64,000 nucleotides of DNA from an uncultured Pedosphaera sp. (GTDB lineage Bacteria > Verrucomicrobiota > Verrucomicrobiia > Limisphaerales > AAA164-E04): NCBI GenBank assembly GCA_965214825.1, contig OZ243981.1, forward strand, positions 658,567 to 722,566, given 5' to 3'. Position numbers and translations under genes: made by a program. The number at the start of each line of letters is the position of its first letter. The stretch's first letter is position 1. Below the pieces are notes generated by a model. The model saw nothing but the letters and a program-made list of their open reading frames with translations, was not told where the DNA came from and made no database searches. Below, one piece after another: positions 2,306 through 62,729 of this stretch.

Positions 2306-2310
2306 TTTTA

Positions 2311-4712: not shown

Positions 4713-4717
4713 CACCT

Positions 4718-9772: not shown

Positions 9773-9805
9773 CGAAGTTCGCTCAAACGCCGGCGCCAAA
9801 TCCGC

Positions 9806-35665: not shown

Positions 35666-35681
35666 ATAGTGAAAAGGGAAC

Positions 35682-36479: not shown

Positions 36480-36642
36480 GGCAATCGGCCGGGCGGGCCG
36501 TTGGCGACAAATTACCGCCAAAAACCGTTGGGTCAAAAGAAAAGATTGCCTGGAAGAGAGCGGCACCAATCACCTGGAGAAAATCCGGCGTTAAAGGATT
36601 TGACAGCTCGACTTAAAGCGTTACTCTCCTCCCGGTTCAGCT

Positions 36643-37488: not shown

Positions 37489-37512
37489 CAAACGCAACCA
37501 GAAAAAAACACT

Positions 37513-38526: not shown

Positions 38527-38588
38527 AGCAAAGGAAAGGTCTCCGACTGGGAGATTGGAGAGGCATTGAGGGCGCAGAAGTGGTGGCG

Positions 38589-39506
38589 ATGTTTACCGCA
38601 AAATGGGGCTTGTTTCTGCTGTTTTTGGCGGCACTGGCGGCCGGAGATTCTTTGGAGGCGGCGTCCAAACGAATCGTCATCGTTGCCGGGAAGCCCAGCC
38701 ACGGCATTTTGCAGCACGAACACAACGCCGGTAGCCTCTTGTTGAAGCGCTGCTTAGCTTCTATCCCCGATTTGGAGGTCAAGGTTTATCAAAATGGCTG
38801 GCCGCAAATTGATAATCCCTTTGCCGGCGCCAATGCCATTGTCTTTTTTGTTACCGGCGGCAGAGCGCATCCGGCGATTCAAGGCGACCGCCTTGGCCAG
38901 TTGAAGCCTTTGATGGACGAAGGAGTTGGGTTTGGCTGCATTCACTACGGTGTGGAAGTCCCGGCCAAGAAGGGAGGCGCGGAGTTTCTGGACTGGATGG
39001 GCGGCTATTTCGAGGTCAACTGGTCAGTCAATCCCCATTGGGACGCCGATTTCAAGCAGATTCCAAAGCATCCGATTACGCGCGGCGTTCAACCCTTCAA
39101 AATACGCGATGAATGGTATTTTCATATGCGCTTTTCGCCAGGGATGAAAGGCGTTGTTCCGATTCTGTCGGCTATCCCGCCGGCAGAAACCATGAACCGG
39201 CCCGACGGGCATCACAGTGGCAATCCCGCCGTCAGAAAAGCAGTCGCCGCCGGCCGCCGGCAACACGTCGCCTGGGCCTACACCCGGCCGAACGGCGGAC
39301 GGGGTTTCGGCTTCACCGGAGCGCACAATCACTTGAACTGGGGCGATTCCAACTTCCGAAAAGTCGTGTTAAACGCGCTGTTATGGCTGACGAAATGCGA
39401 AGTGCCCCCAAACGGCGTCGAATGCGAAGTGACAGAGGAGGATTTAATGGAGAATCTGGACCCGAAAAGGGGCCGAAAGCCGCCAATACGAGTACAGCAA
39501 CGGTAA
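38589..39506 (+). CDS. ThuA domain protein, secreted
   Basis: Signal peptide MFTAKWGLFLLFLAALAAG. KRIVIVAGKPSHG..HEHNAG..IHYGVEV..HPITRGVQPFKIRDEWYFHMRF. Confidence 0.8.
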   Translation: MFTAKWGLFLLFLAALAAGDSLEAASKRIVIVAGKPSHGILQHEHNAGSLLLKRCLASIPDLEVKVYQNGWPQIDNPFAGANAIVFFVTGGRAHPAIQGDRLGQLKPLMDEGVGFGCIHYGVEVPAKKGGAEFLDWMGGYFEVNWSVNPHWDADFKQIPKHPITRGVQPFKIRDEWYFHMRFSPGMKGVVPILSAIPPAETMNRPDGHHSGNPAVRKAVAAGRRQHVAWAYTRPNGGRGFGFTGAHNHLNWGDSNFRKVVLNALLWLTKCEVPPNGVECEVTEEDLMENLDPKRGRKPPIRVQQR

Positions 39507-39508
39507 AA

Positions 39509-41545
39509 ATGAAAAGAGAGTGTCTGTATATGCAGAAAATTTTCAATAATGTGATGCTGCCGGCGGCGCTTGTTTTGGCAGCGGGAGAGGTTTTGGCGAT
39601 GAACCCCCGAGGCATCGGCCGGGAGGCAGCGCTGAAGCAGCTCAAAGACCTCAAAGCGGCCGAAGGCTTGGAAGTCACGCTGTTCGCCTCAGAGCCTTTG
39701 GTGGTCAACCCGACCAATATCGACATCGACGCCCGCGGGAGAGTTTGGGTTGCGGAAGGCGCCAACTATCGGTTGTGGCAAAAATGGGGCAAGCTACGGC
39801 CGGGCGGCGATCGGATTGTGATTCTGGAGGACACGGACTTGGACGGAGCCGCTGACAAACAAACGGTTTACTACCAGGGCGACGACGTCAACGCCGCGCT
39901 GGGGATTTGCGTTTTGGGAAACCGGGTCATTGTCTCCTGCTCGCCGCAGGTGCTCCTGTTCACAGACACGGACGGCGATGACCAGCCGGACAAGAAAGAG
40001 ACACTCTTCTCAAAAATCAAAGGCGTCGATCACGACCATGGTGTTCACGCCTTCGTTTTCGGTCCCGACGGCCGCCTCTACTTCAACTTCGGGAATGACG
40101 GCAAACAAATCGCCGACAAAAACGGCGTCCTTCTCGCTGATCCTCAAGGCAACATTATCGCCGACAACCGAAAACCTTACCAACAAGGCATGGTGTTCCG
40201 ATGCTATCCCGATTTAAGCGGCTTCGAAGTCCTGGGACACAACTTCCGTAACAATTACGAAGTCTGCATCGATTCCTTTGGAACCCTTTGGCAGTCAGAC
40301 AATGACGACGACGGCAACCGAAGCGTGCGCATCAATTATGTCATGGAATACGGCAACTACGGTTACCGGGATGAAAAAACGGGCGCCGGTTGGCGGAAAG
40401 AACGGACGGGCTGGGCGGAGACTGTCCCCGAAAGACACTGGCATCTCAACGATCCCGGTGTGGTGCCCAACTTGCTGCAGACCGGCATGGGATCTCCCAC
40501 AGGCATCCTGTTCTACGAAGGCAAGCTGTTGCCGAAGAAATACCGCAACCAGATCATCCATTGCGATGCCGGCCCCCGTGTCGTCCGCGCCTATCTCGTG
40601 GAGCGATCGGGCGCAGGCTACCGCGCAACCTCGGCCAATATCCTGACCAGCGAGGACACCTGGTTTCGCCCCTCGGACGTGTGCACAGCCCCGGACGGCG
40701 CCCTGTTTGTTGCGGATTGGAACGATGCCGGTGTTGGCGGGCACAACATGGCCGACCACACGCTGGAAGGAATGAGCGGCAGAATCTACCGAGTGGCGCC
40801 CAAGGGCAACAAGCCTCAAACCCCCGCATACCGCCTGCAGCATCCCCGGGGAGCCGTCCGCGCACTCAAATCTCCGAACCTGGCTGCCCGCTATCTCGGC
40901 TGGACGGCATTGCGCGAAATGCAGGGCGAAGCGGAGGCTGCGCTGTTGGAAATGTGGCGGGGAAAAAGCCCAAAGTTTCGGGCCAGAGCGCTGCCCCTTC
41001 TCGCTCGAATCCGGGGCAAAACCGGCCACTATGTCCAACTCGGTGTCGAGGACAAGAACCCGAATATCCGAATCGCCGCCCTGCGAATTGCCAGAGAACG
41101 CAAGTTGGATTTAATCGAGTGGGTTGCCAAACTCGTTCGCGATCCCTCCCCTCAAGTGCGGCGGGAATGTGCCATTGCGCTGCGTTATGAGCCATCGAAA
41201 CAGGCGGCGGTTTTGTGGGCAGAGCTCGCGCGGCAACACAACGGCCGCGACCGCTGGTATTTGGAAGCGTTGGGGATTGGCGCGCACGGCCAGGAAGACC
41301 GCTATTTTTCGGCGTGGATGAAGAAGGCCGGCAGCGATTGGAACACCAAGGCCGGCCGGGACATTATCTGGCGGTCGCGGGCCAAGGAGACGCCGGCACT
41401 GTTAGTGCAGTTGATCCGGGATGCCTCTCTGCCGCAGGCGGAAAAGCTGCGTTACTTCCGGGCGATGGATTTCCTCGAAGGCCCGGAGAAGGATGCCGCT
41501 CTGGTTGAACTGTTGGCGGAAGAGAATGCTGGCGGCGCCGAATAA
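39509..41545 (+). CDS. PVC-type putative membrane-bound dehydrogenase domain protein with C-terminal HEAT repeats
   Basis: LEVTLFASEPLVVNPTNIDIDARGRVWVAEGANY is TIGR02604-like. HEAT-like repeats include NPNIRIAALRIARE and DPSPQVRRECAIALRY. ATG at 39509 or 39530. The 810-aa ORF from 39113 is an artefactual upstream extension. Confidence 0.75.
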   Translation: MKRECLYMQKIFNNVMLPAALVLAAGEVLAMNPRGIGREAALKQLKDLKAAEGLEVTLFASEPLVVNPTNIDIDARGRVWVAEGANYRLWQKWGKLRPGGDRIVILEDTDLDGAADKQTVYYQGDDVNAALGICVLGNRVIVSCSPQVLLFTDTDGDDQPDKKETLFSKIKGVDHDHGVHAFVFGPDGRLYFNFGNDGKQIADKNGVLLADPQGNIIADNRKPYQQGMVFRCYPDLSGFEVLGHNFRNNYEVCIDSFGTLWQSDNDDDGNRSVRINYVMEYGNYGYRDEKTGAGWRKERTGWAETVPERHWHLNDPGVVPNLLQTGMGSPTGILFYEGKLLPKKYRNQIIHCDAGPRVVRAYLVERSGAGYRATSANILTSEDTWFRPSDVCTAPDGALFVADWNDAGVGGHNMADHTLEGMSGRIYRVAPKGNKPQTPAYRLQHPRGAVRALKSPNLAARYLGWTALREMQGEAEAALLEMWRGKSPKFRARALPLLARIRGKTGHYVQLGVEDKNPNIRIAALRIARERKLDLIEWVAKLVRDPSPQVRRECAIALRYEPSKQAAVLWAELARQHNGRDRWYLEALGIGAHGQEDRYFSAWMKKAGSDWNTKAGRDIIWRSRAKETPALLVQLIRDASLPQAEKLRYFRAMDFLEGPEKDAALVELLAEENAGGAE

Positions 41546-41565
41546 CCGTCTCCGATTGTGCCGGC

Positions 41566-42849
41566 TTGCTTCCAAGGGCCGGTCGCCTGATGTTCGCGCT
41601 GTTCTTCGCCGTTTGCGCGTTATCAACATTCAGTCCGCCGGAAAGAGTTGCCCCCATGAGCGGCGAGTTGGAACAAGTTGAAAAAGGCGGTTGGTGGCGG
41701 TCGGCACTTGTGATCCTGGCGGCGTTTGGGGCAGGCTATTGGCTCTTCAAAACAGGCCCTGAAACGGCGACTGAGGAAGAGACACGGCCGCCGAAAATTG
41801 TCAAGACGGTGTCTCCCGTGCCGGCTGCGCAGCGCATTTCGGTGGTGGCTTACGGTTCGGTAGTGCCGGCGCGGCGGGTGGTGGTGAAGCCGTTGGTGAG
41901 TGGGCAGATTTTGGAGCAGCATCCGGAGCTAATTCCCGGGGGATTTGTGCCGGAAGGGGCGGAGCTGTTCAAGTTGGATGCGCGTTTGCTGCGCTTGGAC
42001 GTTCAAGAAGCATCTGCGGCAGTGGATCGGGCCGAGGCTTTGTTGAAAGAGGCGCAACGCAAGCGGGAGGAAGCCTTGCTGCTGGCTCAGGTGCAAGTCA
42101 TTGCCAGCACGGAATTGGCCGCTCTCGAATCGCAGGTGGAGATGCAATCGGCCGAGCTGCGGCGCTTGCAGGCCGTTCGGGAGCGGAATGAGGAGTTGCT
42201 GCGCCGGCATGTTCTGCGGGCACCATTCAATGCGGTGGTGCTGGAAGAGGCGGTCGAGGTGGGGCAGCATGTCGAGCCCGGATTTGCCGCCGCCACCTTG
42301 GCGGGCGCGGATGCGTTTTGGGCGCGGGTTTCCTTATCGGCGGAGAAGTTACGTTGGATTCAACTGCCAAAGGAGGGACAAGAAGGCGCACGGGTAACGG
42401 TTTATCTGGATACGGGCGGCGGGCGAACAGTTCGCCGCGCCGGGCGGGTGGTGCGGCTCTTGAGCGATCTTGAACAGGAAGGGCGCATGGCGCGGATATT
42501 GGTGCGCATCCCGGACCCGATGAGGTTGAACGGGCGGAGGGACGATCCCCCTTTGCTGCTCGGCAGTTATGTCCGGGCGGAGATTGACGCCGGCGTGTTA
42601 GAGGGCGTGCTGGAGGTGCGGCGGGAAGCGCTGCGGGAAGGCGGCCAAATCTGGATCAGCGACTCGAACGGCGAGTTGCAGATTCGCCGTGTGCAGGTGT
42701 TGTGGCGCCGCGATGAAAAGGTTTATTTGAACAATGTTCTCGAACCGGGCGAATCCATCATCATCAGTCCACTGCGGGCGGCTTTGCCGGGGATGAAGCT
42801 CAATCCGCAGCCGGCGGACGGCGAGCCGCCGGGCGAATTCCAAGAGTGA
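41566..42849 (+). CDS. efflux RND transporter periplasmic adaptor subunit
   Basis: N-terminal TM segment, coiled-coil hairpin (AEALLKEAQRKREEALLLAQ..ELRRLQAVRERNEELL) and beta-barrel C-terminus. Immediately upstream of the RND pump. ATG alternative at 41656. Confidence 0.8.
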   Translation: MLPRAGRLMFALFFAVCALSTFSPPERVAPMSGELEQVEKGGWWRSALVILAAFGAGYWLFKTGPETATEEETRPPKIVKTVSPVPAAQRISVVAYGSVVPARRVVVKPLVSGQILEQHPELIPGGFVPEGAELFKLDARLLRLDVQEASAAVDRAEALLKEAQRKREEALLLAQVQVIASTELAALESQVEMQSAELRRLQAVRERNEELLRRHVLRAPFNAVVLEEAVEVGQHVEPGFAAATLAGADAFWARVSLSAEKLRWIQLPKEGQEGARVTVYLDTGGGRTVRRAGRVVRLLSDLEQEGRMARILVRIPDPMRLNGRRDDPPLLLGSYVRAEIDAGVLEGVLEVRREALREGGQIWISDSNGELQIRRVQVLWRRDEKVYLNNVLEPGESIIISPLRAALPGMKLNPQPADGEPPGEFQE

Positions 42850-42856
42850 GGTTCAG

Positions 42857-45800
42857 ATGGCGCGTTCCTGGCAACAATTTGAAAAGGCAGGACTCTTAGG
42901 CTGGTTTGCCCGCAACCCTGTAGCGGCAAATTTGTTGATGATCGCCGTGGTTGCCGCCGGGCTTTTGGCTGCCCACCACATCCGCCAGGAGATTTACCCG
43001 ACTTACACCTTGGATATTGTGCAAATTGAGGTGCGGTATCGGGGGGCAAGTCCGGCGGAGGTGGAGCAAGCGATCCTCCTGCCGATTGAATCGGAGCTGC
43101 GGGGGATGGAAATCCTCCGCGAGATTCGCTCGCGTGCGAGCGAAGGGCGGGCATCGGTCTCGGCTGAGTTGATTCCGGGCACGGACCGGAATCGCGGGCT
43201 GCAGGAAGTAACGGCGGCGGTGCAGCGCATTGATCTTTTTCCTGAAGGAGCGGAGCCGCCAGTTGTTTCTTTGGACGGGGCGCGACGGCGGGGCGTGTTG
43301 TATCTCTCGATTTACGGCGACTTGGACGAGCACGGATTGTTGGCGTTTGCCCGGCAAATCGAGGAGGGGCTGCTTTCGAGGCCGGAAGTCTCTCTGGTCG
43401 AGTTACGCGGTGTGCGAAGCCCGGAGATTCGCATTGAGATTCCGCCAGAGAAGCTGCGGTCGCTGCGGCTGCGGCTGGAGGATATTTCGCGGGCAGTGGA
43501 TGCTTCGGCTCTCGATGTGCCTGCCGGCTCGATCAAGACTCCGAGCGGCGATTTTCTTTTGAAGACGAGCGAGCGGCGAGATTTTGCCAAGGAGTTTGGA
43601 GAGATTGCGATTCTCAGCAAAGCTGATGGAACCAAGGTGCTTTTGCGGGACATTGCTGAAATTACTGACGATTTTGAAGAGTCGGACGCTGAAAGCTACT
43701 TCAACGGGCGGCCGTCTATCTGGCTGGCGGTTTACAGTTCTGAGACGCAGTCGCCGCTTGCCGTGGCCCGCGCCGTGCGGGAGCACATCGAACGCGAGAA
43801 GCCGCATCTGCCGCCGAGTGTGGGCATGGCAGTAACCTATGATCGGTCGCACAGTTACGCCGAGCGCATGGACATGCTGCTGAAGAATGGTGCTTTGGGT
43901 CTGCTGTTGGTTCTTCTTGCCTTGGGGTTGTTTTTGGAATTGCGGGTGGCTTTTTGGACGGCGGCGGGAATCCCGGTGTCGATTTTGGGTTCTCTTTTTT
44001 TGCTGCCGGCGATGGATGCCAGCATCAACATGCTTTCGCTGTTTGGGTTCATCGTCACTTTGGGGATTGTGGTGGATGATGCGGTGGTGGTCGGCGAGGA
44101 TATCTTTCACAAGATGTGTTTGGGGATGAGCCGGTTGGAGGCGGCGATTGAGGGCGTGAAAGAGATGGCAGTGCCGGTGGTGTTTGCGGTCTCCACCAAC
44201 ATCATTGCTTTCTTGCCTTTGTTGTTTGTTCCGGGGGCGACGGGGCGGTTCTTTTTTGTGTTGCCGGCTGTGGTGATTGCTGTGTTTTCGGTGTCGTTGA
44301 TCGAATGTCTGCTGATTTTGCCGGCGCATTTGGCGCATCGAAGCGGGCGTCAGGGGACGAAGTGGTTTCAACTTTTCCATGTTTGGCAAACGGCGCTGCG
44401 GTTGCGCATCGACAGGGCCATTGACCAATGGTATGGCCCTGTGGTTCGATTAGTGGCGCGGCATCGGCTGTTCACCTGCGCGGTATTTCTAGCGGGGCTT
44501 TGCGTGTCGGCGGGATACACCTTCAGCGGCCGGGTGAACTTTGCCTTTCGGCCTTCGATCGAAACGCCGTTTATTCAAGCCGAAGTCGAAACGCCAGCGG
44601 GCACTCCGGTGTCCCGCATCCGGGAGATTTGCTTTCAAGTCGAAGCGGCGGCGCGGGAGGCACTCCGGCAAAACGGCGAGCCAGGCATCCTGGTTGGAAT
44701 CACCGTCGGGTTGAAATACCGCGGGTTCAACGGCGGCGAAGTCTCCGTCCGCTTGGTTCCCCAAAGCGGTCGGCGCATCACAGCCGAGCAATTCGCCAAC
44801 CTCTGGCGGAAAACCATTCCAGACATCCCCGACGTCGAATCCATCTTTTTCGACTATCTAATCGGCCCAGGCGGTTCCGCGGAAATTGACATTCAAATCG
44901 CGCATCCGGAAGTGGCCGTGCTACGGCAAGCGGCAGCAGAAGTGGCGGCGGCCATCGGCAAGTATCCCGGAGTTGAAGACGTCAAAAAAGGATTTGGGCG
45001 CGAAATGCCGCAATTTAACTTCGAGATCAAGCCGGAGGGACGCAGCCTGGGCCTCACCACGCGAGAACTCGGCCAGCAGATTCGCCATGCGTTCTACGGC
45101 GCTGAAGCCTTGCGCCAACCGCGCGACCGGGAAGAACTTCGCGTCATGATTAAATACCCTCAAACGGAGCGAAAGTCCTTGAGCGGCCTGGAGAATCTGC
45201 TGATTCGAACGCCCGGCGGCGGCGAAATCCCCCTGCGCCAAGCAGCGAAAGTCATCCCCGCCTCGGCGCCCACTCGAATCGAACGAGTCAACGGTTCGCG
45301 CGTGCACAACATCACCGCCAACGTAACGCCCGGCATCACGACCGGAAACAAGGCGCTTGCCGCTTTTGCCCGAACCGAACTCCCGGCCATCCTGGCCAAA
45401 TATCCCGGACTGCAATACAGCTTCGAAGGCGAACAACGTGAACAGCGCGATTCCATGGCCAATTTATACTGGGGCTTGCTGTTCTCCTTATTCGCCATTT
45501 ATGCATTGATGGCGGCGCTCCTGCGAAGCTACATCCAAGCGATCATCGTCCTTCTGATGATCCCCTGGAGCCTATCGGGAGCCGTGCTCGGGCATGTCAT
45601 CATGGGGTTTGACCTGAGTGTGTTCAGCATCTTCGGAATGCTTGCCTTGTGCGGGATGGTGGTCAACGGCGCCTTTGTCCTGGCTGTGACGCGGAACCAG
45701 TATCTGCGCGAAGGAAAGAGCCCGGCCGAGTCCGTCCTCTTGGCGGCACAGCGGCGCTTTCGCCCGATTCTCTTGACGGCGCTGACAACATTCCTAGGCT

Positions 45801-46006
45801 TGCTGCCGATGATTTTCGAAACCAGCATACAAGCGCTCTTTCTCGTGCCGATGGCCATTGCTTTGGGCGCCGGCACGCTGGTTTCCGCCGCAGTGGTCCT
45901 AACTCTCATCCCCGCCTTGATGCTGATAGCCGAAGACCTCGGCTTGGAAACCTTGTCCGAGCGATTGCAACAAGAAGGCAGGATGTTTCCCCCAACCTAT
46001 CCCTGA
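42857..46006 (+). CDS. efflux RND transporter permease (AcrB/AcrD/AcrF family)
   Basis: 1049 aa with the 12-TM layout. FGFIVTLGIVVDDAVVVGEDI and ALCGMVVNGAFVLAV are typical of TM4/TM10 regions. Confidence 0.9.
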   Translation: MARSWQQFEKAGLLGWFARNPVAANLLMIAVVAAGLLAAHHIRQEIYPTYTLDIVQIEVRYRGASPAEVEQAILLPIESELRGMEILREIRSRASEGRASVSAELIPGTDRNRGLQEVTAAVQRIDLFPEGAEPPVVSLDGARRRGVLYLSIYGDLDEHGLLAFARQIEEGLLSRPEVSLVELRGVRSPEIRIEIPPEKLRSLRLRLEDISRAVDASALDVPAGSIKTPSGDFLLKTSERRDFAKEFGEIAILSKADGTKVLLRDIAEITDDFEESDAESYFNGRPSIWLAVYSSETQSPLAVARAVREHIEREKPHLPPSVGMAVTYDRSHSYAERMDMLLKNGALGLLLVLLALGLFLELRVAFWTAAGIPVSILGSLFLLPAMDASINMLSLFGFIVTLGIVVDDAVVVGEDIFHKMCLGMSRLEAAIEGVKEMAVPVVFAVSTNIIAFLPLLFVPGATGRFFFVLPAVVIAVFSVSLIECLLILPAHLAHRSGRQGTKWFQLFHVWQTALRLRIDRAIDQWYGPVVRLVARHRLFTCAVFLAGLCVSAGYTFSGRVNFAFRPSIETPFIQAEVETPAGTPVSRIREICFQVEAAAREALRQNGEPGILVGITVGLKYRGFNGGEVSVRLVPQSGRRITAEQFANLWRKTIPDIPDVESIFFDYLIGPGGSAEIDIQIAHPEVAVLRQAAAEVAAAIGKYPGVEDVKKGFGREMPQFNFEIKPEGRSLGLTTRELGQQIRHAFYGAEALRQPRDREELRVMIKYPQTERKSLSGLENLLIRTPGGGEIPLRQAAKVIPASAPTRIERVNGSRVHNITANVTPGITTGNKALAAFARTELPAILAKYPGLQYSFEGEQREQRDSMANLYWGLLFSLFAIYALMAALLRSYIQAIIVLLMIPWSLSGAVLGHVIMGFDLSVFSIFGMLALCGMVVNGAFVLAVTRNQYLREGKSPAESVLLAAQRRFRPILLTALTTFLGLLPMIFETSIQALFLVPMAIALGAGTLVSAAVVLTLIPALMLIAEDLGLETLSERLQQEGRMFPPTYP

Positions 46007-46055
46007 CCCGGCAGCGACGCCCTTTCCCGCTGCGGGAAAAGTGGAGAAATTCTTT

Positions 46056-46232
46056 CGCAAAAAGCATTTACGGGCTTAACAGGGTGACGCGCAGGCACAT
46101 GTGGCGCAGGCACTTGACCGGTTGACCGGCACCTGCCTTGACAAAAAATCCAATCCTGTGCCTCCTGCAAATCTATATGTCCCGAACTAAATCGCCCTCC
46201 ATAACCATTAAAGCCCATAAATGCTTATTGCG
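46056..46232. mobile_element. MITE-like terminal sub-element of unit B (177 bp)
   Basis: CGCAAAAAGCATTTACGGGCTT at 46056 and AAGCCCATAAATGCTTATTGCG at 46211-46232. Its right 120 bp is the reverse complement of 4428-4550. Confidence 0.55.
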
Positions 46233-46297
46233 AAAAAAACTGTGGACAAAACACCGCCGAACCGTTAAGACAAACCCGCAACAGAAAACCGCCAATA

Positions 46298-49200
46298 ATG
46301 AAACTGAAAGACACTGCAGCTATGAAACCATTATCCGTTATCCTCTCGAAACTGGTGGCAACCGCCGCCAACAAAACCGCCAAACCGCAACCCATCAAAA
46401 ACAGGCCAACATCGCCGCATCGAATCGGCTTGGCTTTGGCCCTCGCCCTCACCCTCCCAGCCGCCGCCCAAACCCTCACCATCACCGGAACCAAAACCGA
46501 CGGCAGCGCCTTCAGCCGGCAAGTCAATCCCAACACGACATCTCTGGATCTCAGATATCTTAACCTGGTTTCCCTAACCCTGCCCGATGGCTTGACCAGC
46601 TTGCAGAGGCTGGATCTCTACAAAAACCTCCTGACCACCTTGACCCTGCCCGATGGCTTGACCAGCTTGACGAGGCTGGATATCCGCCACAACCGCCTAA
46701 CCACCTTGACCCTGCCCGATGGCTTGGCAAACTTGCAGGGTCTGGGTCTCAGCCACAACCGACTGAGCACCTTGACCCTGCCCGATGGCTTGGCAAACTT
46801 GCAGGACCTGTCTCTCCACAACAACCGCCTAACCACCTTGACCCTGCCCGATGGCTTGGCAAACTTGCAGAGTCTGAGTCTCGGCGACAACCGACTGAGC
46901 ACCTTGACCCTGCCCGATGACTTGACCAACTTGGAGGACCTGAGTCTCCCCCGCAACCGCCTAACCGCCTTGACCCTGCCCGACAGCTTGACCAACTTGC
47001 AGGGTCTGTATCTCCGCGACAACCAACTGACCTCCCTGACCTTGCCCGTCGGCCTGGATAGCTTGAAGGATCTTGAACTCTGGGGCAATCCTTTGGAGAG
47101 TTTGCGTATGCCTCTGGGCATGGACATTGAATTTCTCGATCTTCAAGGCTTCCCGAAATCCGAGGTTACATTCTATGACCCGGCAACCGAGAAACCTCCT
47201 GCCCTCACGGGAACCCACAGTGACGGCAGCGATTTCCGCCGGGAAGTCGCCACCAGCGCCGCCTCTCTAAATCTTGCCGACAATGGCTTGACCAGCTTAA
47301 CTTTGCCGGACGGTTTGGCAAATTTGCAGGAGCTGAATCTCGCCGACAATGGCCTGACGAGTCTGGCCTTGCCGGAGGACTTAACGAGCTTGCAGGAGCT
47401 GGTTCTTTTCAACAACCAACTGACCAACCTGACTTTGCCGGAGAATTCGGCGAACCTGCGGGAGTTGTATCTCGCCGACAATGGCTTGACCGCTCTGAAC
47501 CTGCCAGAGGGTTTGGCAAACTTGCGGACGCTGGTTCTCAAAGACAACCAACTGACCAATCTGACCTTGCCCGAAGGGTTGACAAACTTGCGAGTGCTGG
47601 TTCTCAACGACAATCCTTTGGAGAGTGTGCGGGTGCCTCAAGGATTGGACATTGAAAATATCCTTCTCGTTGGTTTCCCAAAATCAGAAGTGACCTTCTA
47701 CGATCCCGCGACCGGAGAAATGATTGCGCCGCCGCCAACCGGAGAACCGCCCACGACTGGGACATTCATTACCCTCACCGGAACGACAAGCGCTGGCAGC
47801 GATTTTCGTTTGGAGGTCGATGCCGACACGGAGTTTTTGTCTCTCTCCGACAATCTACTGATTTCCCTCACCGTGCCCAATGGCCTAGAGAACTTGCAGC
47901 AGCTGCACCTCTTCGACAATCAACTCTCTTTCATAACTTTGCCCGATGGTTTGACGAACTTGCAGCACCTGTATCTCTTTGGCAATCAACTAACTAACTT
48001 GGCCTTGCCGGAGGGCTTGGAAAATTTGCAGCGGCTGTATCTCTTCGACAATCAGTTGACCAATCTGACCTTGCCCGAGGGTTTAATGAACTTGCGAGTG
48101 CTGGTTCTCAACGACAATCCTTTGGAGAGTGTGCGGGCGCCTCAAGGATTGGACATTGAAAATATCCTTCTCGTTGGTTTCTCCAAATCAGAAGTGACCT
48201 TCTACGATCCCGCGACCGGAGAGACGATTGCGCCGCCGCCAACCGGCCAAACTCTGACGGTCACCGGTGCCATAAGCGGCGGCAAGCCTTTCAGCCGGCA
48301 GGTTCCTGCCGACGCAGAGTCTCTCTCTCTCGACAACAATCAACTGACCTCCTTGATCTTGCCTAGCGGCTTGGAGAACTTGAAGTCTCTCTACCTCTCC
48401 AAAAATCGCTTCACTTCCTTGACCTTACCCGCCGACTTAAAGAACCTGCAGACTTTGTTTCTCTACGACAATCCTTTGGAGAGTTTGCATATACCGCTAG
48501 ACATGGATATTGAAAATCTTGTGCTTGGAGGTTTCCCAAAATCAGAAGTGACCTTCTACGATCCCGCGACCGGAGAGACGATTGCGCCGCCGCCAACCGG
48601 AGAACCGCCCACGACTGGGACATTCATTACCCTCACCGGGACGACAAGCGCTGGCAGCGATTTTCGTTTGGAGGTCGATGCCGACACGGAGTTTTTGTCT
48701 CTCTCCGACAATCTACTGACTTCCCTCACCGTGCCCGCTGGCCTGGAGAACTTGCAGCGGTTGCACCTCTTCGACAATCAACTCTCTTTCATAACTTTGC
48801 CCGATGGTTTGACGAACTTGCAGCATCTGTATCTCTTTGGCAATCAACTGACTAACTTGGCCTTGCCGGAGGGCCTGGAAGATTTGCAGCGGCTGTATCT
48901 CTTCGACAATCAGTTGACCAATCTGACTTTGCCCGAGGGTTTAATGAACTTGCGAGTGCTGGTTCTCTACGACAATCCTTTGGAGAGTTTGCATATACCG
49001 CTAGACATGGACATTGAAAATATTCTTCTCGTTGGTTTCCCAAAATCAGAAGTGACCTTCTACGATCCCGCGACTGGAGAGACGATTGCGCCGCCGCCAA
49101 CCGGCCAAACTCTGACGGTCACTGGTGCCATAAGCGGCGGCAAGCCTTTCAGCCGGCGGGTTCCTGCCGACGCAGAGTCTCTCTCTCTCGACAACAATCA

Positions 49201-51790
49201 ACTGACCTCCTTGACCTTGCCTAGCGGCTTGGAGAACTTGAAGTCTCTCTACCTCTCCAAAAATCGCTTCACTTCCTTGACCTTACCCGCCGACTTAAAG
49301 AACCTGCAGACTTTGTTTCTCTACGACAATCCTTTGGAGAGTTTGCATATACCGCTAGACATGGATATTGCAAATCTTGTGCTTGGAGGTTTCCCAAAAT
49401 CAGAAGTGACCTTCTATGATCCCGCGACCGGAGAGACGATTGCACCGCCGCCAACCGGAGAACCGCCCACGACTGGGACATTCATTACCCTCACCGGAAC
49501 GACAAGCGCTGGCAGCGATTTTCGTTTGGAGATCGATGCCGACACGGAGTTTTTGTCTCTCTCTGACAATCTACTGACTTCCCTCACCGTGCCCGCTGGC
49601 CTGGAGAACTTGCAGCGGCTGCACCTCTTCGACAATCAACTCTCTTTCATAACTTTGCCCGATGGTTTGACGAACTTGCAGCATCTGTATCTCTTTGGCA
49701 ATCAACTGACTAACTTGGCCTTGCCGGAGGGCCTGGAAGATTTGCAGCGGCTGTATCTTTTCGACAATCAGTTGACCAATCTGACCTTGCCCGAGGGTTT
49801 AATGAACTTGCGAGTGCTGGTTCTCAACGACAATCCTTTGGAGAGTGTGCGGGCGCCTCAAGGATTGGACATTGAAAATATCCTTCTCGTTGGTTTCCCA
49901 AAATCAGAAGTGACCTTCTACGACCCGGCGACTGGAGAGACGATTGCGCCGCCACCCACAGAACCCACAGAGCCAGCAGAGCCCATGGAACCATCAGAGC
50001 CCACGGAGCCAACAGAACCAGAACCGCCAATTGAGGAAACTGTCCTCATCACCGGAACGACAAGCGCCGGCAGCGCTTTTAGACGGGAGGTTACTGCAAA
50101 GGTGACGTCTTTGGGTCTCTCCGGCAATGACCTGACTTCTGTAATCTTGCCCGAAGGCTTGGAGAAATTACAGCGGTTGGGTCTCTACCACAACCGCCTG
50201 ACAGCCTTTACCTTGCCTAACAGCTTGATTAGCTTGCAGTCTCTGGGTCTCTGGAACAATCGCCTGACTACCTTCACCCTACCCAATACCTTAACCAACT
50301 TGCAGGAGCTACATCTCGGCAACAATCAGCTGACCGCCTTTGCCCTGCCCCATACCTTGACCAACTTGACGAGTCTGAATCTCTTCGGCAATCAGCTGAC
50401 CGCTTTCACCTTGCCTGACAGCTTAACCAACTTGACGAATCTGAGTCTCTGGAACAATCAGCTGACCGCCTTCGCCCTGTCCCATACCTTGACCAACTTG
50501 ACGAGTCTGGATCTCTTCGGCAATCAGCTGACCGCCTTCACCTTGCCTGACAGCTTGACTAACTTGACGAATCTGAGTCTCTGGAACAATCGCCTAACCA
50601 CCTTCACTCTGCCCCATACCTTGACCAACTTGACGAGTCTGGATCTCTACAATAATCAACTAACTAATATGACCTTGCCCGTCGGCTTGGAGAATTTGGA
50701 GACGCTGCGGCTCGACGGCAATCAACTGACCTCCCTGATTTTACCCACCAGCCTGGAGAACTTAGAGAGGCTGGATCTCCGCAGCAATCAACTGACTAAT
50801 TTGACCTTGCCCGCCGGCTTGGAGAATTTGGAGACGCTGGATCTCCGCGGTAATCCTTTGGAGAGTGTGCGTGTGCCTCTGGGCATGAACCTTGAATTTC
50901 TCCCTCTTCAAGGTTTCCCAAAATCAGAAGTGACCTTCTACGATCCCGCGACCGGAGAGACGATTGCACCGCCGTCCACAGAGCCGATAGAACCAGAACC
51001 GCCAACTGAGGAAACTCTCCTCATCACCGGGACGACAAGCGACGGCAGCGCTTTTAGACGGGAGGTCGACGCCGACACAGAGTCTCTGCCCCTCTCCAGA
51101 AATCAGTTGACCAATCTGACTTTGCCCGCCGGCTTGACCAGCTTGAGGTCATTGTATCTTGCCAACAATCAACTCACATCCCTGATTTTGCCAAACGACT
51201 TGACCAGCTTGGAGACGCTGTATCTCAGCTACAACCGCCTGAATGCCTTCTCCGTGCCCAATACCTTAACCAACTTGAGGACGTTGAATATCGGCGGCAA
51301 TCGTCTGGCTTCGCTGACTTTGCCCACAGGCTTGACCAACTTGAGAACACTGACTCTCAACAACAATTCCCTGACCCACCTGGCCTTGCCCGCTGGCCTG
51401 ACGAGCTTGCGCTCGCTGGTTCTCAACGGCAATCCTTTGGAGAGTTTGTGTGTGCCCGAAGGCATGGACATTGAGAGTCTCAACCTGCAAGGTTTCCCGA
51501 AATCGGCGGTGACCTTTTGTGAGCCAACGATGGGCACCTTGACCTTGCCGGAAGCCAGCTCGGCGAACTTCAGGCGCTTGTCACTCGACAACAACAACCC
51601 TTTGGAGATTGTGCGGATTGCGGGGGGCGGGGTGCAGATTCTTTGGCAGGGAGGGACATTGCAAAGCACGACTGATTTGAGGGGCGAGTGGGAAGCCGTG
51701 GCGCCGTCTCGTTTTTCTCGGGAGGGGGTGTTGTCGATTCCGCCTAAGCGGAAAGGCGCAGAGTTCTTCCGCCTGAAACCGGCGAAGTAA
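46298..51790 (+). CDS. giant modular leucine-rich-repeat secreted protein, paralogue B (1830 aa, intact)
   Basis: Long leader ending ALALALTLPAAAQ. There are nine modules. Each has a TITGT.SDGS beta-rich head, 4-10 LRRs of 22-24 aa (L..L.L..N.LT.LTLP.GL.NL), a cap NPLESLRVPLGMDIE.L.L.GFPKSEVTFYDP and a Pro/Thr/Glu linker. A unique C-terminal domain ends in AEFFRLKPAK. TAA stop. Confidence 0.85.
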   Translation: MKLKDTAAMKPLSVILSKLVATAANKTAKPQPIKNRPTSPHRIGLALALALTLPAAAQTLTITGTKTDGSAFSRQVNPNTTSLDLRYLNLVSLTLPDGLTSLQRLDLYKNLLTTLTLPDGLTSLTRLDIRHNRLTTLTLPDGLANLQGLGLSHNRLSTLTLPDGLANLQDLSLHNNRLTTLTLPDGLANLQSLSLGDNRLSTLTLPDDLTNLEDLSLPRNRLTALTLPDSLTNLQGLYLRDNQLTSLTLPVGLDSLKDLELWGNPLESLRMPLGMDIEFLDLQGFPKSEVTFYDPATEKPPALTGTHSDGSDFRREVATSAASLNLADNGLTSLTLPDGLANLQELNLADNGLTSLALPEDLTSLQELVLFNNQLTNLTLPENSANLRELYLADNGLTALNLPEGLANLRTLVLKDNQLTNLTLPEGLTNLRVLVLNDNPLESVRVPQGLDIENILLVGFPKSEVTFYDPATGEMIAPPPTGEPPTTGTFITLTGTTSAGSDFRLEVDADTEFLSLSDNLLISLTVPNGLENLQQLHLFDNQLSFITLPDGLTNLQHLYLFGNQLTNLALPEGLENLQRLYLFDNQLTNLTLPEGLMNLRVLVLNDNPLESVRAPQGLDIENILLVGFSKSEVTFYDPATGETIAPPPTGQTLTVTGAISGGKPFSRQVPADAESLSLDNNQLTSLILPSGLENLKSLYLSKNRFTSLTLPADLKNLQTLFLYDNPLESLHIPLDMDIENLVLGGFPKSEVTFYDPATGETIAPPPTGEPPTTGTFITLTGTTSAGSDFRLEVDADTEFLSLSDNLLTSLTVPAGLENLQRLHLFDNQLSFITLPDGLTNLQHLYLFGNQLTNLALPEGLEDLQRLYLFDNQLTNLTLPEGLMNLRVLVLYDNPLESLHIPLDMDIENILLVGFPKSEVTFYDPATGETIAPPPTGQTLTVTGAISGGKPFSRRVPADAESLSLDNNQLTSLTLPSGLENLKSLYLSKNRFTSLTLPADLKNLQTLFLYDNPLESLHIPLDMDIANLVLGGFPKSEVTFYDPATGETIAPPPTGEPPTTGTFITLTGTTSAGSDFRLEIDADTEFLSLSDNLLTSLTVPAGLENLQRLHLFDNQLSFITLPDGLTNLQHLYLFGNQLTNLALPEGLEDLQRLYLFDNQLTNLTLPEGLMNLRVLVLNDNPLESVRAPQGLDIENILLVGFPKSEVTFYDPATGETIAPPPTEPTEPAEPMEPSEPTEPTEPEPPIEETVLITGTTSAGSAFRREVTAKVTSLGLSGNDLTSVILPEGLEKLQRLGLYHNRLTAFTLPNSLISLQSLGLWNNRLTTFTLPNTLTNLQELHLGNNQLTAFALPHTLTNLTSLNLFGNQLTAFTLPDSLTNLTNLSLWNNQLTAFALSHTLTNLTSLDLFGNQLTAFTLPDSLTNLTNLSLWNNRLTTFTLPHTLTNLTSLDLYNNQLTNMTLPVGLENLETLRLDGNQLTSLILPTSLENLERLDLRSNQLTNLTLPAGLENLETLDLRGNPLESVRVPLGMNLEFLPLQGFPKSEVTFYDPATGETIAPPSTEPIEPEPPTEETLLITGTTSDGSAFRREVDADTESLPLSRNQLTNLTLPAGLTSLRSLYLANNQLTSLILPNDLTSLETLYLSYNRLNAFSVPNTLTNLRTLNIGGNRLASLTLPTGLTNLRTLTLNNNSLTHLALPAGLTSLRSLVLNGNPLESLCVPEGMDIESLNLQGFPKSAVTFCEPTMGTLTLPEASSANFRRLSLDNNNPLEIVRIAGGGVQILWQGGTLQSTTDLRGEWEAVAPSRFSREGVLSIPPKRKGAEFFRLKPAK
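47690..49960. repeat. about 2.6 near-identical 858-bp tandem copies (286-aa double module) inside LRR gene B
   Basis: ggagaaccgcccacgactggg occurs at 47741, 48599 and 49457 (offset 858 each). Shadow ORFs 47698, 48556 and 49414 translate almost identically. Confidence 0.85.
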
Positions 51791-51987
51791 AAGTGAGGCA
51801 GACACTCGAAGAGCAGTTAGGGCGGAGGGGAACCGACATCCAACTTCCTGTCTGCCCGACCTTTATGCTGGACAAGGTGAAAAAGCCAGTAACTGCTTGT
51901 TGCGAATTCTTTTGTTGACATTCTTGAAAAAGGAGAGTACACTTTTCCTAAATTGTTTTTAGACCCAATTAAACAGTGGAGTAGATT

Positions 51988-52687
51988 ATGTTCTCAAGAT
52001 GGTTGATTGTTGTTGGGATTGCGGTGGGGATGGCGGGCTTCCATTGGGAAGCGACAGCGCAGTTGGTAGTGTTCAGCTTTAATGATGCGGCCAGGGATGA
52101 GACTTCGTTCAGTCCGGATTCTCAGACAGCGAACGGCTTGGCCGGCAACATGACGCGCGGTTCCGGGCTAATCGCAACCAAGGCAGGCGGCACCTTCAGC
52201 GCAAAAGGATGGTCAACCGAGGGCATCGACCTGAATAACTATTACAGTTTTTCCTTCGGCGCCAGCTCTGGCTTTCAAGCAGCCTTATCCTCATTGGAGT
52301 TGAGCGGACGGCGTTCGGGAACCGGCATCCGCAATTGGTCGGTCCGCAGCAGCCTAGACAATTTCTCCTCCGATCTGTCCCCCTCGCCCTTCTCAGTGTG
52401 CTCAACAACACAGACACTCACTCGGGGCAGGTTCCCTTCAGCAGCGAGAGTTTTTCCGGCCTAACAAGAGATCAGTGGAATTTCGGATTTACGACTACAA
52501 TGCGGAAGCGAGTTCCGGAACATGGCGCATCGACAATGTGAAACTCGCCGGCCAAATTACTGTGGTTCCCGAACCTGCCGGGTGTTTGGTTGGGGGGAAC
52601 ATGGTGCTGCTTGCATTGGGATTTTGTTGGTATCGCCGCCGGCATCGTCAAGGTCGCCCGAACACTGTCGGGGAAGCTGCCCTCTGA
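51988..52687 (+). pseudogene. PEP-CTERM sorting-domain protein, split over three frames
   Basis: Frame 1 has a signal peptide, then SFNDAA..LTRGSGL..GWSTEG..NWSVRSSLDNFSSDL. Frame 3 has LSVLNNTDTHSGQVPFSSESFSGLT. Frame 2 has VEFRIYDYNAEASSGTWRIDNVKLAGQITVVPEPAGCLVGGNMVLLALGFCWYRRRHR, which is VPEP, a TM segment and a basic tail. Confidence 0.65.
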
Positions 52688-53134: not shown

Positions 53135-54217
53135 ATGCCCCAGAAAACTACTGAGAAAGGACGAAAACCGGTCTCGACTTCAACCGCCAACGCCTCCGAA
53201 AAAAGCCGCAATTTGCAAACCGCCATCCACACCATCACCAAAACATTCGGGGAAGGCAGCATCATGCGTCTCGGAGACGCCAGACTGAAATCCCAAATAG
53301 AAGCCATTCCCACGGGCGCCATGTCGCTCGACATAGCCTTGGGCGTAGGCGGTTTGCCGAAGGGGAGAATCATCGAGATCTACGGGCCGGAATCTTCCGG
53401 CAAGACCACAGTCATGCTGCATGTCATCGCCAACGCCCAAAAGGTCGGTGGCACCGCGGCATTCATCGACGCCGAACATGCCTTGGACCCGGTGTATGCC
53501 AAGAGACTGGGGGTCAATTTGGACAACCTGTTGGTATCCCAGCCCGACAGCGGCGAGGAAGCGCTGACCATTTGCGAAACCCTTGCCCGGTCGGGAGCCG
53601 TTGATGCCATCGTGGTTGATTCCGTGGCGGCCTTGGTGCCGAAGGCTGAGTTGGACGGGGAGATGGGCATGGCAACAATGGGCATGCAAGCCCGGTTGAT
53701 GAGCCAAGCTTTGCGCAAACTCACCTCCATCCTGAGCAAAGGGAAAACCACCTGTCTGTTCACCAACCAATTGAGAGAAAAAGTGGGCGTCATATTCGGC
53801 AGCCCCGAAACGACACCGGGCGGGAAAGCCTTGAAGTTCTACGCCAGTGTGAGAATGGATATCCGCCGGAGAGAAACCCTGAAAAATGCTGCCGGCGCCG
53901 CGATTGGCAACCATGTCAAAGTGAAAATCGTGAAGAACAAAGTCGCGCCCCCGTTTGCGGAAGCTGAGTTCGACATCATATATAACCAAGGTATCAACAA
54001 AGAAGGCAGCATTCTCGAACTCGGCGTCAAGGACGGCGTTGTCGAGAAAAAGGGAGCCTGGTTTCAATTTGACGGAGAATTGATCGGCCAGGGCAAGGAA
54101 GCAGCGCGGTTAGCGTTGCGGGACAACCCGGCCTTGGCCGAACGCATCCAGGCCGCGATTCTGGACAAACGGAATCCCTCCAAAACCGAACCGGAATCCA
54201 AGCAGACGAAGGCTTGA
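53135..54217 (+). CDS. recA: recombinase RecA
   Basis: [20 protein letters not shown] (Walker A)..[55 protein letters not shown]. Confidence 0.95.
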
Positions 54218-55763: not shown

Positions 55764-55891
55764 CGCAATGGATCGGAAGGCGGGGCGGAAGCCGCCGGGT
55801 ATCACGGCATTGGCCATTGGACATTGAAGGGCTGCCCTCCGTTCATCCGGCCATAGAACAATTTCCAGTTGGGTTCAGCAACACATATCTT

Positions 55892-56888
55892 CGCAATAAC
55901 AATTTAAGGGCTTTTGGGGTTTTGAGTTTTTATGGTGGTCGGTCAATCGTTAAAGCAGCCGGTGATGAAGGCGCTGAATGGATTGGGATTGTTGCGGTAA
56001 TTGTATTTCCAAGTGGCTTCGGAGAGATAAAGCTGCATGTCTTCTTTGGAATAATGGTGATGACTGCCATACCAAGCGCGTTTGAGCAGAGACCAAAACC
56101 CTTCAATCGTGTTGGTGTGGACATCCCCCAGCGCGTAGCGAACGGCATGGCGCACGACTTCGTGTTCCACGCCAATGGCGTCAATGTTGTGGAACTCCCT
56201 GGCTTCATCCGTCATCAGGCGAGTCCGTTTTTTGTGCAGCCAAGTGGCCATCAGGTGCCTAATGTTGGTGCGCAAAGGCGTCCCGGGCGGGTGTTTGACT
56301 TGGGCTCTGACTTGGCCACCCCGTTCCACCGCGCCAATCACCGGTGTTTTGTCGGAATATTTGTCTCTGGGCGGACGATTTTCGAAATGTTTGTTCGGTT
56401 TGCGTGGTCGCCCTCCGATAAAGGTTTCGTCGGCCTCGACAATCCCCCGCAAGAGTTTCTTGCTGCGCATCTGCCCCATCGCCAGGCGCACCCGCACTTG
56501 CAGATACCACGCCGATGGCTGGGTCATCTCCAAATCGCGGGAGAGTTGCCAGCTGGAAAGGCTTTTCTTGGCGTTGAGGATGAGGGCAATGGCCAAGAAC
56601 CATTTTTGGAGGGGGATTTTGGTTTTCTGGAAGATGGTGCCGGAAAGGACGTTGAAACTGCTCTTGCAAGCATGGCAATTCCACCGGCCAATGCGGTTTT
56701 TGTCCTTCTTTTTGGCGACATCATGGCTGTTGCAGAGGGGGCACTGGGGTTTGCCGTGCCAGCGGACGGCTTCCAAGTAGTCGAAGCAGGCTTGCTGGTC
56801 AGGAAAGCGTTCAAAGACTTTGATTAAGTTCATCCGCGCACCTTACCAAGCCCTCGAAATCTTGTCAAGCCCTTAAATTGTTATTGCG
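55892..56888 (-). mobile_element. IS1595-family insertion sequence, copy 2 (997 bp, intact)
   Basis: Perfect 22-bp IRs CGCAATAACAATTTAAGGGCTT at 55892-55913 and 56867-56888. The 8-bp duplication CATATCTT is at 55884-55891 and 56889-56896. Contains a single 296-aa transposase ORF. Confidence 0.9.
55943..56833 (-). CDS. IS1595-family transposase (N-terminal zinc ribbon plus ISXO2-like DDE domain)
   Basis: CPLCNSH..WNCHACKSSF is the zinc ribbon. GIVEADETFIGGRPRK, RLMTDEAREF and TNTIEGFWSLLKRAWYGSHHHYS are typical of IS1595/ISXO2-like transposases. Confidence 0.9.
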   Translation of the reverse strand: MNLIKVFERFPDQQACFDYLEAVRWHGKPQCPLCNSHDVAKKKDKNRIGRWNCHACKSSFNVLSGTIFQKTKIPLQKWFLAIALILNAKKSLSSWQLSRDLEMTQPSAWYLQVRVRLAMGQMRSKKLLRGIVEADETFIGGRPRKPNKHFENRPPRDKYSDKTPVIGAVERGGQVRAQVKHPPGTPLRTNIRHLMATWLHKKRTRLMTDEAREFHNIDAIGVEHEVVRHAVRYALGDVHTNTIEGFWSLLKRAWYGSHHHYSKEDMQLYLSEATWKYNYRNNPNPFSAFITGCFND

Positions 56889-57022
56889 CATATCTTCCGA
56901 TTGGTCTTTCCGGTGGACAACTCATGCAGGCGATTCGAGGAATGCGCTTTCAAAAAGAATCTCTGTTCTTTGCCGGCGCCTTGTTTTCCGTTACATCTCC
57001 GGTTGCCGGGCGGTCTTTTGAC

Positions 57023-57895: not shown

Positions 57896-58089
57896 ATTCC
57901 CGCAACCCCACCGCTTCAACAGCCCCCATCCCCATCCAAAAAACCTCTGGCAATAAATCGCCGCAGACCAGCGCACCGGCAAAAAAAATTGCCAACCCTC
58001 TTGACACAGGTGGCAGCTTGTGGTCTGCCCGCCCTTAAAACAGTCCATTAGGGGATCTCCATTGGGTCGCCTATCGGAATAGAAAAGTC

Positions 58090-58210
58090 CGCAATAAGCA
58101 GTTACTGGCTTTTTTCGCCTTGTCCAGCATAAAGGTCGGGCAGACATTCTTGTCTGCCCGCAGGCTGAAAGCCTGCGCTACTCCCGCTAAGCCTATAAAT
58201 GCTTATTGCG
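58090..58210. mobile_element. 121-bp MITE with IS1595-type IRs and an 8-bp target-site duplication
   Basis: CGCAATAAGCAGTTACTGGCTT is at 58090-58111 and AAGCCTATAAATGCTTATTGCG at 58189-58210. GAAAAGTC is at 58082-58089 and 58211-58218. The left 56 bp is the reverse complement of 51849-51904. Confidence 0.8.
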
Positions 58211-58410
58211 GAAAAGTCTGTCAGAACAGCACCGGGGAGAGATGGCAAGGAACATTACGCCGACGTCTATTCCTCTGACGGAGACTCCTACAAGGTGGCT
58301 GTAACTCTCGTTTTTCATCCTTAATCGGAGAAAAAGGCGTGGAGAATGGTTTAACTGAGGCGGCTTGGCACGGGTACTGCTCTTGCTAAGTCGCCGTTTT
58401 TGATTTATTT

Positions 58411-62479: not shown

Positions 62480-62530
62480 ACCCCTCAGCCAAACAACCGT
62501 TCGCCGCCGCATCAAAAGCAGCAAAACCCG

Positions 62531-62681: not shown

Positions 62682-62729
62682 AAAACCCGGCTTGCCAAAA
62701 CGCCCCTCGGAAAGCTAATCTCGGCAGCT

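Follow-up and report, generated by a model that had tools for sequence, protein, structure and literature searches.

The genes considered here encode large leucine-rich repeat (LRR) proteins and lie in a 64,000-nucleotide stretch of contig OZ243981.1 from an uncultured Pedosphaera sp. of the Verrucomicrobiota, which is called the window in what follows. One of them is intact and the other is a pseudogene, and each forms part of a segment that begins and ends with a 22-bp terminal inverted repeat (IR) and is enclosed by two copies of an 8-bp sequence. We refer to the segment with the pseudogene as unit A and to the segment with the intact gene as unit B. The window also holds an autonomous insertion sequence (IS) of the IS1595 family and short elements with IRs of the same type (MITEs, for miniature inverted-repeat transposable elements), and MITEs or their remnants make up the termini of both units. 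The positions of these features are listed in Table 1.

Table 1. Features of units A and B and of the related elements in the window.
Feature	Position	Strand	Details
Unit B	46056-51904	gene +	5,849 bp; MITE, 65-bp spacer, LRR gene and 114-bp MITE-derived tail ending in outer IR
Left target-site duplication, unit B	46048-46055		AATTCTTT
Right target-site duplication, unit B	51905-51912		AATTCTTT
177-bp MITE B1, gene-upstream end of unit B	46056-46232		outer IR 46056-46077, inner IR 46211-46232
LRR gene B, intact	46298-51790	+	1830 aa; leader with signal peptide, modular LRR arrays, conserved C-terminal domain
Leader	46288-46505		about 93-94% identical to unit A
LRR arrays			65-80% identical to unit A; repeat number differs too
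C-terminal domain	51351-51803		about 93-95% identical to unit A
Downstream hairpin module	51804-51856		94% identical to unit A
MITE-derived gene-downstream end of unit B	51791-51904		hairpin, MITE58-type terminus, outer IR 51883-51904
Promoter-like TTGACA-17-TACACT, host DNA	51915-51943	+	2 bp past duplication; fits family target motif
Unit A	4428-9772 (4420-9780 with duplication)	-	5,345 bp; duplication CGAAGTTC at 4420-4427 and 9773-9780
Unit A, 251-bp MITE	4428-4678		inner IR 4657-4678; flanks CGAAGTTC / AAATCAAG
Unit A, LRR pseudogene	4718-9171	-	two frameshifts
Unit A, degenerate IR	9223-9244		52 bp upstream of LRR ATG
Unit A, repeat debris	9357-9613		between degenerate IR and 151-bp MITE
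Unit A, complete 151-bp MITE	9622-9772		inner IR 9622-9643; flanks GGAGATGG / CGAAGTTC
Autonomous IS1595-family IS	55892-56888 (55884-56896 with duplication)	-	997 bp; perfect 22-bp IRs CGCAATAACAATTTAAGGGCTT; duplication CATATCTT
Second IS copy, 94% identical	17831-18794	+	transposase frameshifted; left IR duplicated (17743, 17816); no clean duplication
121-bp MITE	58090-58210 (58082-58218 with duplication)		duplication GAAAAGTC; left end of same type as unit B right end
151-bp MITE	62531-62681 (62523-62689 with duplication)		duplication AAAACCCG

Terminal repeats, duplications and composition of the units

At unit B the left IR reads CGCAAAAAGCATTTACGGGCTT and the reverse complement of the right IR reads CGCAACAAGCAGTTACTGGCTT, the two matching at 19 of 22 positions, and a copy of AATTCTTT directly adjoins the tip of each. 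The inverted ends and the identical 8-mers outside them had been claimed in the original prediction, and direct reading of the sequence confirms both. The duplication stops at 8 bp on either side, with gtggaga before the left copy and tgttgac after the right one. As there is no homology past the 8-mers it is not part of a larger segmental duplication, an objection that the prediction had itself raised. By itself the octamer is no rarity, as the window has 4 copies where 4.7 are expected, and what is non-random about it is its position at the IR tips rather than its frequency.

The 22-mer IR occurs 8 times in the window when up to three mismatches are allowed and not once in 100 shuffles; with up to five mismatches there are 13-16 matches. 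The prediction had also proposed a scan for IR pairs with matching 8-mers outside them, and within the window this gives 44 pairs of a plus end and a minus end, four of which have outer 8-mers that are identical at six or more of the eight positions. All four are identical at 8/8, and they are the autonomous IS, the 121-bp MITE, unit A and unit B. A fifth element with an 8/8 duplication, the MITE at 62531-62681, was seen by eye.

The window and four loci on three related contigs (L050, L051, L055 and L056) provide 14 insertion sites, five of them in the window and nine elsewhere. They are the sites of ISs, of MITEs of 120-161 bp, of both LRR units and of a further unit of 2.66 kb. The duplication is 8/8 at 12 of these sites and 7/8 at two. 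Over 21 ends the IR is invariant at positions 1, 2, 5, 7, 8, 14 and 18-21, and the ends of the units agree with the IRs of the IS at 17-19 of 22 positions. It could be argued that the IRs and octamers are a chance resemblance or the product of segmental duplication and have nothing to do with transposition, and the ordinary frequency of AATTCTTT would sit well with this. We nevertheless give that explanation almost no credence, considering the excess of IRs over the shuffles, the IR-plus-8-bp rule obeyed alike by five window elements and nine sites on related contigs, and the end of all homology at the 8-mers.

The units had been predicted to consist of a gene between two IRs. Their ends are true IS1595-type ends, but each unit is a composite, in which the gene has a MITE on one side and a second MITE or what remains of one on the other, and there are further IRs inside, at 46211-46232 in unit B and at 4657-4678 and 9622-9643 in unit A. 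MITE B1 is flanked by AATTCTTT on its outer side and AAAAAAAC on its inner side and has no duplication of its own, and the same is true of both unit A MITEs. Bases 1-43 of B1 are 95% identical to 9772-9730, and its bases 51-177 are 93% identical to 4554-4428. The right end of unit B is chimeric and joins a module of the A type to a terminus of the MITE58 type, the long hairpin at 51797-51856 being 94% identical to 4612-4560 and the terminus at 51849-51904 being 95% identical to 58146-58090. The inner downstream IR of unit A is missing from unit B, where there is a 92-bp gap at GCAGAC direct repeats. The only long open reading frame (ORF) inside the units is the LRR gene, and a tblastn search of 4428-9772 and 46056-51904 with the IS transposase found no transposase-like coding beyond noise at E > 1.

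GC-rich hairpins built on GCAGACA...TGTCTGC lie just past both LRR stop codons and also inside MITEs (51797-51856, 4700-4722 and 58118-58139), and the terminator-like hairpins of the LRR genes look MITE-derived. A promoter scan of the MITE upstream of the LRR gene gave a weak 9/12 match only, and no MITE-driven expression is claimed. On the other side of unit B, the TTGACA-17-TACACT in the host DNA is the probable promoter of an ORF at 51988-52464, with TTGACA as its -35 box. The repeat at 9357-9613, a stretch of about 250 bp on the upstream side of the LRR gene in unit A, has copies of approximately 80% identity at L056 10905-11159 and 12127-12254, which adjoin an IS end and a MITE, and the IR variant CGCAATAAACGT... 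of 9223-9244 recurs at L056 12083. This repeat may represent a further subfamily of non-autonomous elements.

The resident IS, related MITEs and their target sites

The autonomous IS has perfect 22-bp IRs (55892-55913 and 56867-56888) and between them a single ORF, at 55943-56833 on the minus strand, which encodes a 296-aa DDE transposase. In Pfam the protein matches DDE_Tnp_IS1595 (PF12762, ISXO2-like DDE; 1.6e-30, covering 2-153 of 153) and has an N-terminal zinc ribbon (Zn_ribbon_IS1595, PF12760; 1.3e-08), while the NCBIfam model NF033547, 'IS1595 family transposase', gives 155.7 bits against a cutoff of 75. A zinc ribbon and DDE domain in the transposase, and terminal IRs with an 8-bp duplication, are the features of the IS1595 family, and the element at 55892-56888 has all of them; 8 bp is the known duplication length for IS1595/IS1016 (PMC10045372). 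Duplications of 8/8 are found at four full IS copies, namely this one and those in L050, L051 and L055. The transposase belongs to a 90%-identity cluster of 19 variants, at least 12 of which are on the window's own 3.83-Mb contig, with others on three contigs of assembly ERZ25070786.

The second IS copy in the window has its left IR and the 51 bases that follow in tandem at 17743-17837, with a period of 73 bp. The tandem left IR, together with the frameshifted transposase and the lack of a matching 8-bp duplication, suggests that this copy has been rearranged at its site.

Three full IS copies, and MITEs of 120, 153, 160, 161 and 161 bp, come from the related contigs. At L055 8922-10099 an IS (8930-9922) lies beside a 161-bp MITE (9931-10091) with three copies of GGTTTTTG between and around them, so that one 8-bp target adjoining GCTTGACA was used twice. 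At L050 746-3420 there is a third long IR-bounded unit (754-3412, 2,659 bp), whose duplication CTGCTGGA/CTGCTGGC matches at 7/8 and which contains a MITE and a nested IS, the latter flanked by the duplication TCTTAAAC. In the remaining approximately 1.2 kb of this unit there is only a low-complexity ORF of 190 aa with no Pfam match. The L050 unit indicates that the IS1595-type family regularly gives rise to long segments bounded by IRs. When metagenome contigs were scanned with a degenerate IR pattern there were 2 matches, both of them lone unrelated sites without homology to the window, and the IR family is not represented in the contigs scanned.

Just past the duplication, on one side, 12 of the 14 insertion sites carry NN-TTG(A/C), often as TTGACA; of positions drawn at random from the window, 4.9% have NN-TTG(A/C). 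The motif was recognised post hoc; when it is defined on the other elements, the probability that both LRR units would conform to it is about 0.002, and they do so with the targets GC TTGCAC (unit A) and TG TTGACA (unit B). In the window the motif lies at 51913-51920, 4414-4419, 62690-62696 and 55878-55883, and the AT content of the 8-bp duplications is high, at 62% where the window has 46%. The inner flanks of both unit A MITEs fit the motif too, as would be expected if these MITEs had first inserted independently beside an LRR gene at a donor locus. For an IS1595 member that is so far uncharacterised, this gives a target-site rule open to testing: 8 bp followed by NN-TTGAC.

The LRR cargo and the probable movement of whole units

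LRR protein B has strong Pfam matches to LRR_4, LRR_5 and LRR_8. The NCBIfam internalin and adhesin models score far under their cutoffs (for example 247 against 1050), and we therefore rejected membership of the internalin family and describe it as an LRR protein only. A search of the protein database with the full-length protein returned only distant LRR proteins, with local identities of 50% or less. The signal-peptide-like leader and the LRR content suggest that the protein is located at the surface, and the pattern of divergence between A and B suggests that it is variable. From 47562 to 49959 gene B contains 2.8 copies of an 858-bp (286-aa) super-repeat with 92-94% identity, atop LRR units of 66 bp, and gene A has one block of the 858-bp type that is about 87% identical; the super-repeat looks like a recent internal amplification.

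Units A and B are co-linear and co-oriented, with an IR 52-65 bp upstream of the ATG in both. Homology of their gene-upstream ends had been put forward as a sign of shared polarity and ancestry, and the homology is there: 46056-46098 and the reverse complement of 9730-9772 are identical at 41 of 43 positions. The 43-bp end is no proof by itself, however, as it is the left end common to a MITE subfamily and is found in places where there is no LRR gene (L050 754-819 and L056 15396-15461). The claim of shared polarity and ancestry stands on the co-orientation and on a sliding-window comparison in unit B coordinates, in which the leader, the C-terminal domain and the downstream module all reach about 93-95% (Table 1). 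In whole-gene comparison the gene ends of A and B are 81-82% identical, against 92-95% for the MITE modules, from which independent capture of the two genes might be supposed. This was rejected, since the leader and C-terminal domain are also at about 93-95%, and the similar identities of these parts and the end modules argue that the gene and the adjoining transposon modules share one ancestry.

We consider it likely that units A and B are non-autonomous transposons of the IS1595 family, with an LRR gene as their sole cargo, that were moved by a transposase acting in trans. They have ends of the type of the resident IS, no transposase inside, and a duplication of the family's length that surrounds the whole unit and not its sub-parts. 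Matching 8-mers at the outer ends and not at the inner MITE ends point to a compound element moved by its outside ends, and exclude independent insertion of the MITEs at their present sites. The units would accordingly be classed as mobile insertion cassettes (MICs) or MITE-bounded composites, and for unit B the most probable account is a cassette, itself without a transposase, that the enzyme of the resident element moved. Three other classes were rejected. Neither unit has a transposase within its IR pair, as a transporter IS (tIS) would; the terminal modules are MITEs of 151-251 bp or a 114-bp remnant and not complete ISs, as in an IS-flanked compound transposon; and repeats of the repetitive extragenic palindrome (REP)/REP-associated tyrosine transposase (RAYT) type do not fit a family whose associated gene is a DDE IS1595 transposase and whose elements make 8-bp duplications.

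The course of events may have been as follows. At a donor locus, an LRR gene would have received a family MITE on each side by separate insertions, after which an IS1595-type DDE transposase, encoded by one of this genome's many IS copies and acting in trans, would have paired the two outermost IRs. The whole MITE-gene-MITE segment would then have been inserted beside a TTGAC motif, the 8-bp staggered cut being repaired to give the duplication. There would have been at least two such insertions, at CGAAGTTC and at AATTCTTT, because a composite still at the site of its formation would have two unrelated outer flanks. The copies would have diverged afterwards, the leader, C-terminal domain and ends staying at about 94% while the LRR arrays diverged and changed in repeat number; copy A would have gained its two frameshifts, and copy B would have lost the inner downstream IR via the 92-bp gap relative to A at the GCAGAC repeats. 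The movement of the whole unit is a strong inference and not an observed event, and mobilisation in trans, the order of the events, and whether the mode was cut-and-paste or copy-out are likewise what we infer.

The genes for Sua5 and NamZ are adjacent and co-oriented in two relatives, with a spacer of 131 bp in L053, a 10.5-Mb Limisphaerales chromosome, and of 76 bp in L054. In the window unit A lies between them, and removal of the unit and one duplication copy would leave a spacer of about 113 bp. The Sua5-NamZ intergenic DNA is too diverged to align, and the empty site of unit A is therefore seen in the gene order and not in the sequence. In the database the NamZ protein (448 aa, P0255) has as its start an ATG that lies within the unit A IR (4439; region 4340-4439). 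The signal peptide MKRCFAVLTLL... and the lengths of 416-423 aa in relatives indicate that the true start is about 30 codons downstream, outside unit A.

Two further explanations leave the units as we see them without transposition of the whole. In the first, the LRR genes were resident and MITEs simply inserted on either side of them in separate events. Family MITEs are dense in the window, and the motif at the inner flanks of the unit A MITEs suggests that independent insertions beside an LRR gene did happen at some locus. Such insertions would however leave each MITE with a duplication of its own, and none has one; instead a perfect 8-mer is common to the outermost ends in both units, for which the chance is about 1/65,536 per pair, and these outer 8-mers are not within a longer duplicated host segment. 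Unit A moreover interrupts a conserved Sua5-NamZ adjacency, and we regard this explanation as very improbable.

In the second, ordinary MITEs were inserted at AATTCTTT and CGAAGTTC and the LRR gene was later installed by double crossover, the MITEs serving as portable homology and not as transposon ends. The target motif and the duplication would then come from the resident MITE and so do not discriminate between the two mechanisms. The MITE modules, which are 92-95% identical between loci over 43-130 bp, could support RecA-dependent exchange, and the mosaic of MITE-subfamily ends in A and B, with the chimeric right end of B, indicates that recombination among family members occurs. Against this, two rare events on 43-130 bp of homology would be required, at two loci. 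In unit B a complete two-IR MITE lies upstream of the gene and is followed by non-MITE DNA, which is the layout of a moved composite and not of a replaced MITE interior, and the 2.66-kb IR-bounded unit of L050, with its 7/8 duplication, shows long segments to be regular products of the family. Double crossover thus seems to us unlikely, although less so than independent flanking. Transposition of the entire cassette on at least two occasions, as the prediction had it, is supported by the IS1595 ends, by the duplications and by the Sua5-NamZ adjacency, and the two perfect 8-mers at different targets, of the length made by the resident IS, bear out its claim of two independent duplications.

Several observations nonetheless weigh against the movement of whole units by the resident transposase. 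No precise empty site was recovered for A in the relatives compared, or for B in its relatives and the metagenome contigs scanned. The predicted unit B empty site, GTGGAGAAATTCTTTTGTTGACAT, gave 0 matches in an exact-match scan of the metagenome contigs, and at unit A the comparison with L053 and L054 extends to gene order and not to the intergenic sequence. In L052, the relative closest by AcrB, synteny breaks off exactly after that gene, and the unit B site cannot be compared there. IR positions 7-9 are AAC in all IS copies and nearly always AAG in the MITEs and LRR units, and the cognate transposase of the units may for this reason belong to a sister IS not seen here, a reservation that extends to the double-crossover explanation. 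The downstream outer termini of the units differ, unit A having a B1-type end and unit B a MITE58-type end, which would imply replacement of an end or recombination in addition to transposition. Lastly, the upstream region of unit A is a mosaic of repeat fragments that are also found in L056.

The relatives at the unit B locus were obtained from GTDB genomes through AcrB, with a best match of 88% amino acid identity, and they assign the host to the Limisphaerales within the Verrucomicrobiota. The IR is in none of the 47 AcrB-relative loci, and the window's genes downstream of AcrB are in none of them either. Window 33127-45991 and L052 show 13 kb of gene-by-gene synteny up to the AcrB stop codon, where unit B begins; after AcrB, L052 has a GT4 glycosyltransferase, whereas the window goes on to unit B, a pair of orphan ORFs and recA (53135-54217). 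The unit B cassette coincides with a rearrangement breakpoint. When the proteins of the flanking genes were looked up by exact match, no other contig came up.

Relation to known mobile cassettes

Families of giant repeat-protein paralogues are typical of Verrucomicrobiota and Planctomycetota genomes, and their expansion is usually ascribed to duplication and recombination. For the concept of a MIC or MITE composite, most of the other documented cases concern resistance genes and the effectors of plant pathogens. The scars of transposition at both copies of the 5.5-kb LRR gene suggest that transposase-less cassettes can disperse such genes as well. A wider and more tentative possibility is that a Limisphaerales IS1595 transposase targets the DNA immediately upstream of -35-like TTGACA sequences, that MITE pairs routinely capture genes, and that giant LRR cassettes are copied around the chromosome, their conserved leader, anchor and ends framing a fast-diverging array. 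If this were true it would amount to a transposon-driven engine for a variable surface-protein family, analogous to the TALE cassettes of Xanthomonas, in a free-living environmental phylum.

The name MIC is given to passenger genes that lie between IS-type IRs with no transposase among them, and a cognate transposase can mobilise such cassettes (PMC4337579, PMC3129680). An example is IS231-MIC231 of Bacillus cereus (PMC4337579; PMC3129680), and the TALE-carrying MICs of Xanthomonas have the IRs of TnXax1, of the Tn3 family, with 5-bp duplications and a tandem-repeat protein as cargo (PMC4337579). Units A and B resemble MICs in their IS-type IRs around a passenger, their lack of a transposase, their duplications of the cognate length and their presumed mobilisation in trans. 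The TALE MICs are the closest analogue, as there too a long tandem-repeat gene with conserved ends and a variable array exists in diverged paralogous copies. Units A and B differ from MIC231 and the TALE MICs in having IS1595 ends and 8-bp duplications, where the others are of the IS4 or Tn3 (5 bp) type. They also differ in their ends, each of which is an entire MITE or a remnant of one and which include further IRs on the inside, in their cargo, a secreted LRR gene of about 5.5 kb, and in their host, an uncultured Limisphaerales (Verrucomicrobiota).

Pairs of MITEs are known to mobilise integrons and resistance genes, such as the 439-bp MITEs around class 1 integrons in Acinetobacter and the mobilisation of mcr-5 by IR148 (PMC10969869). 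In these composites as in units A and B two non-autonomous MITEs bracket a gene segment, the outermost IRs are paired and the duplication lies around the whole. Their MITEs are near-identical and their cargo is plasmid-borne resistance, whereas units A and B have different subfamily variants around a chromosomal surface-protein gene, and unit B has lost one inner IR. Within the IS1595 family itself, transporter ISs are described as carrying a transposase together with passenger genes (Siguier, Gagnevin and Chandler 2009, as cited in PMC3129680), and through such passengers the family is known to make the boundary of IS and transposon indistinct. The units share with the tISs so described the family and the passenger genes, but a tIS keeps its transposase beside the passengers and the units are without one. 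With compound transposons such as Tn5 and Tn10 they have in common terminal modules that each have two IRs, the use of the outside ends, and inner ends without duplications. Unlike those of Tn5 and Tn10, however, the terminal modules are MITEs of 150-250 bp and not ISs, and the units could not supply a transposase of their own. The kind of element and its mechanism are therefore already known, and what is new is the combination of IS1595 ends, a giant LRR cargo and a host in the Verrucomicrobiota.

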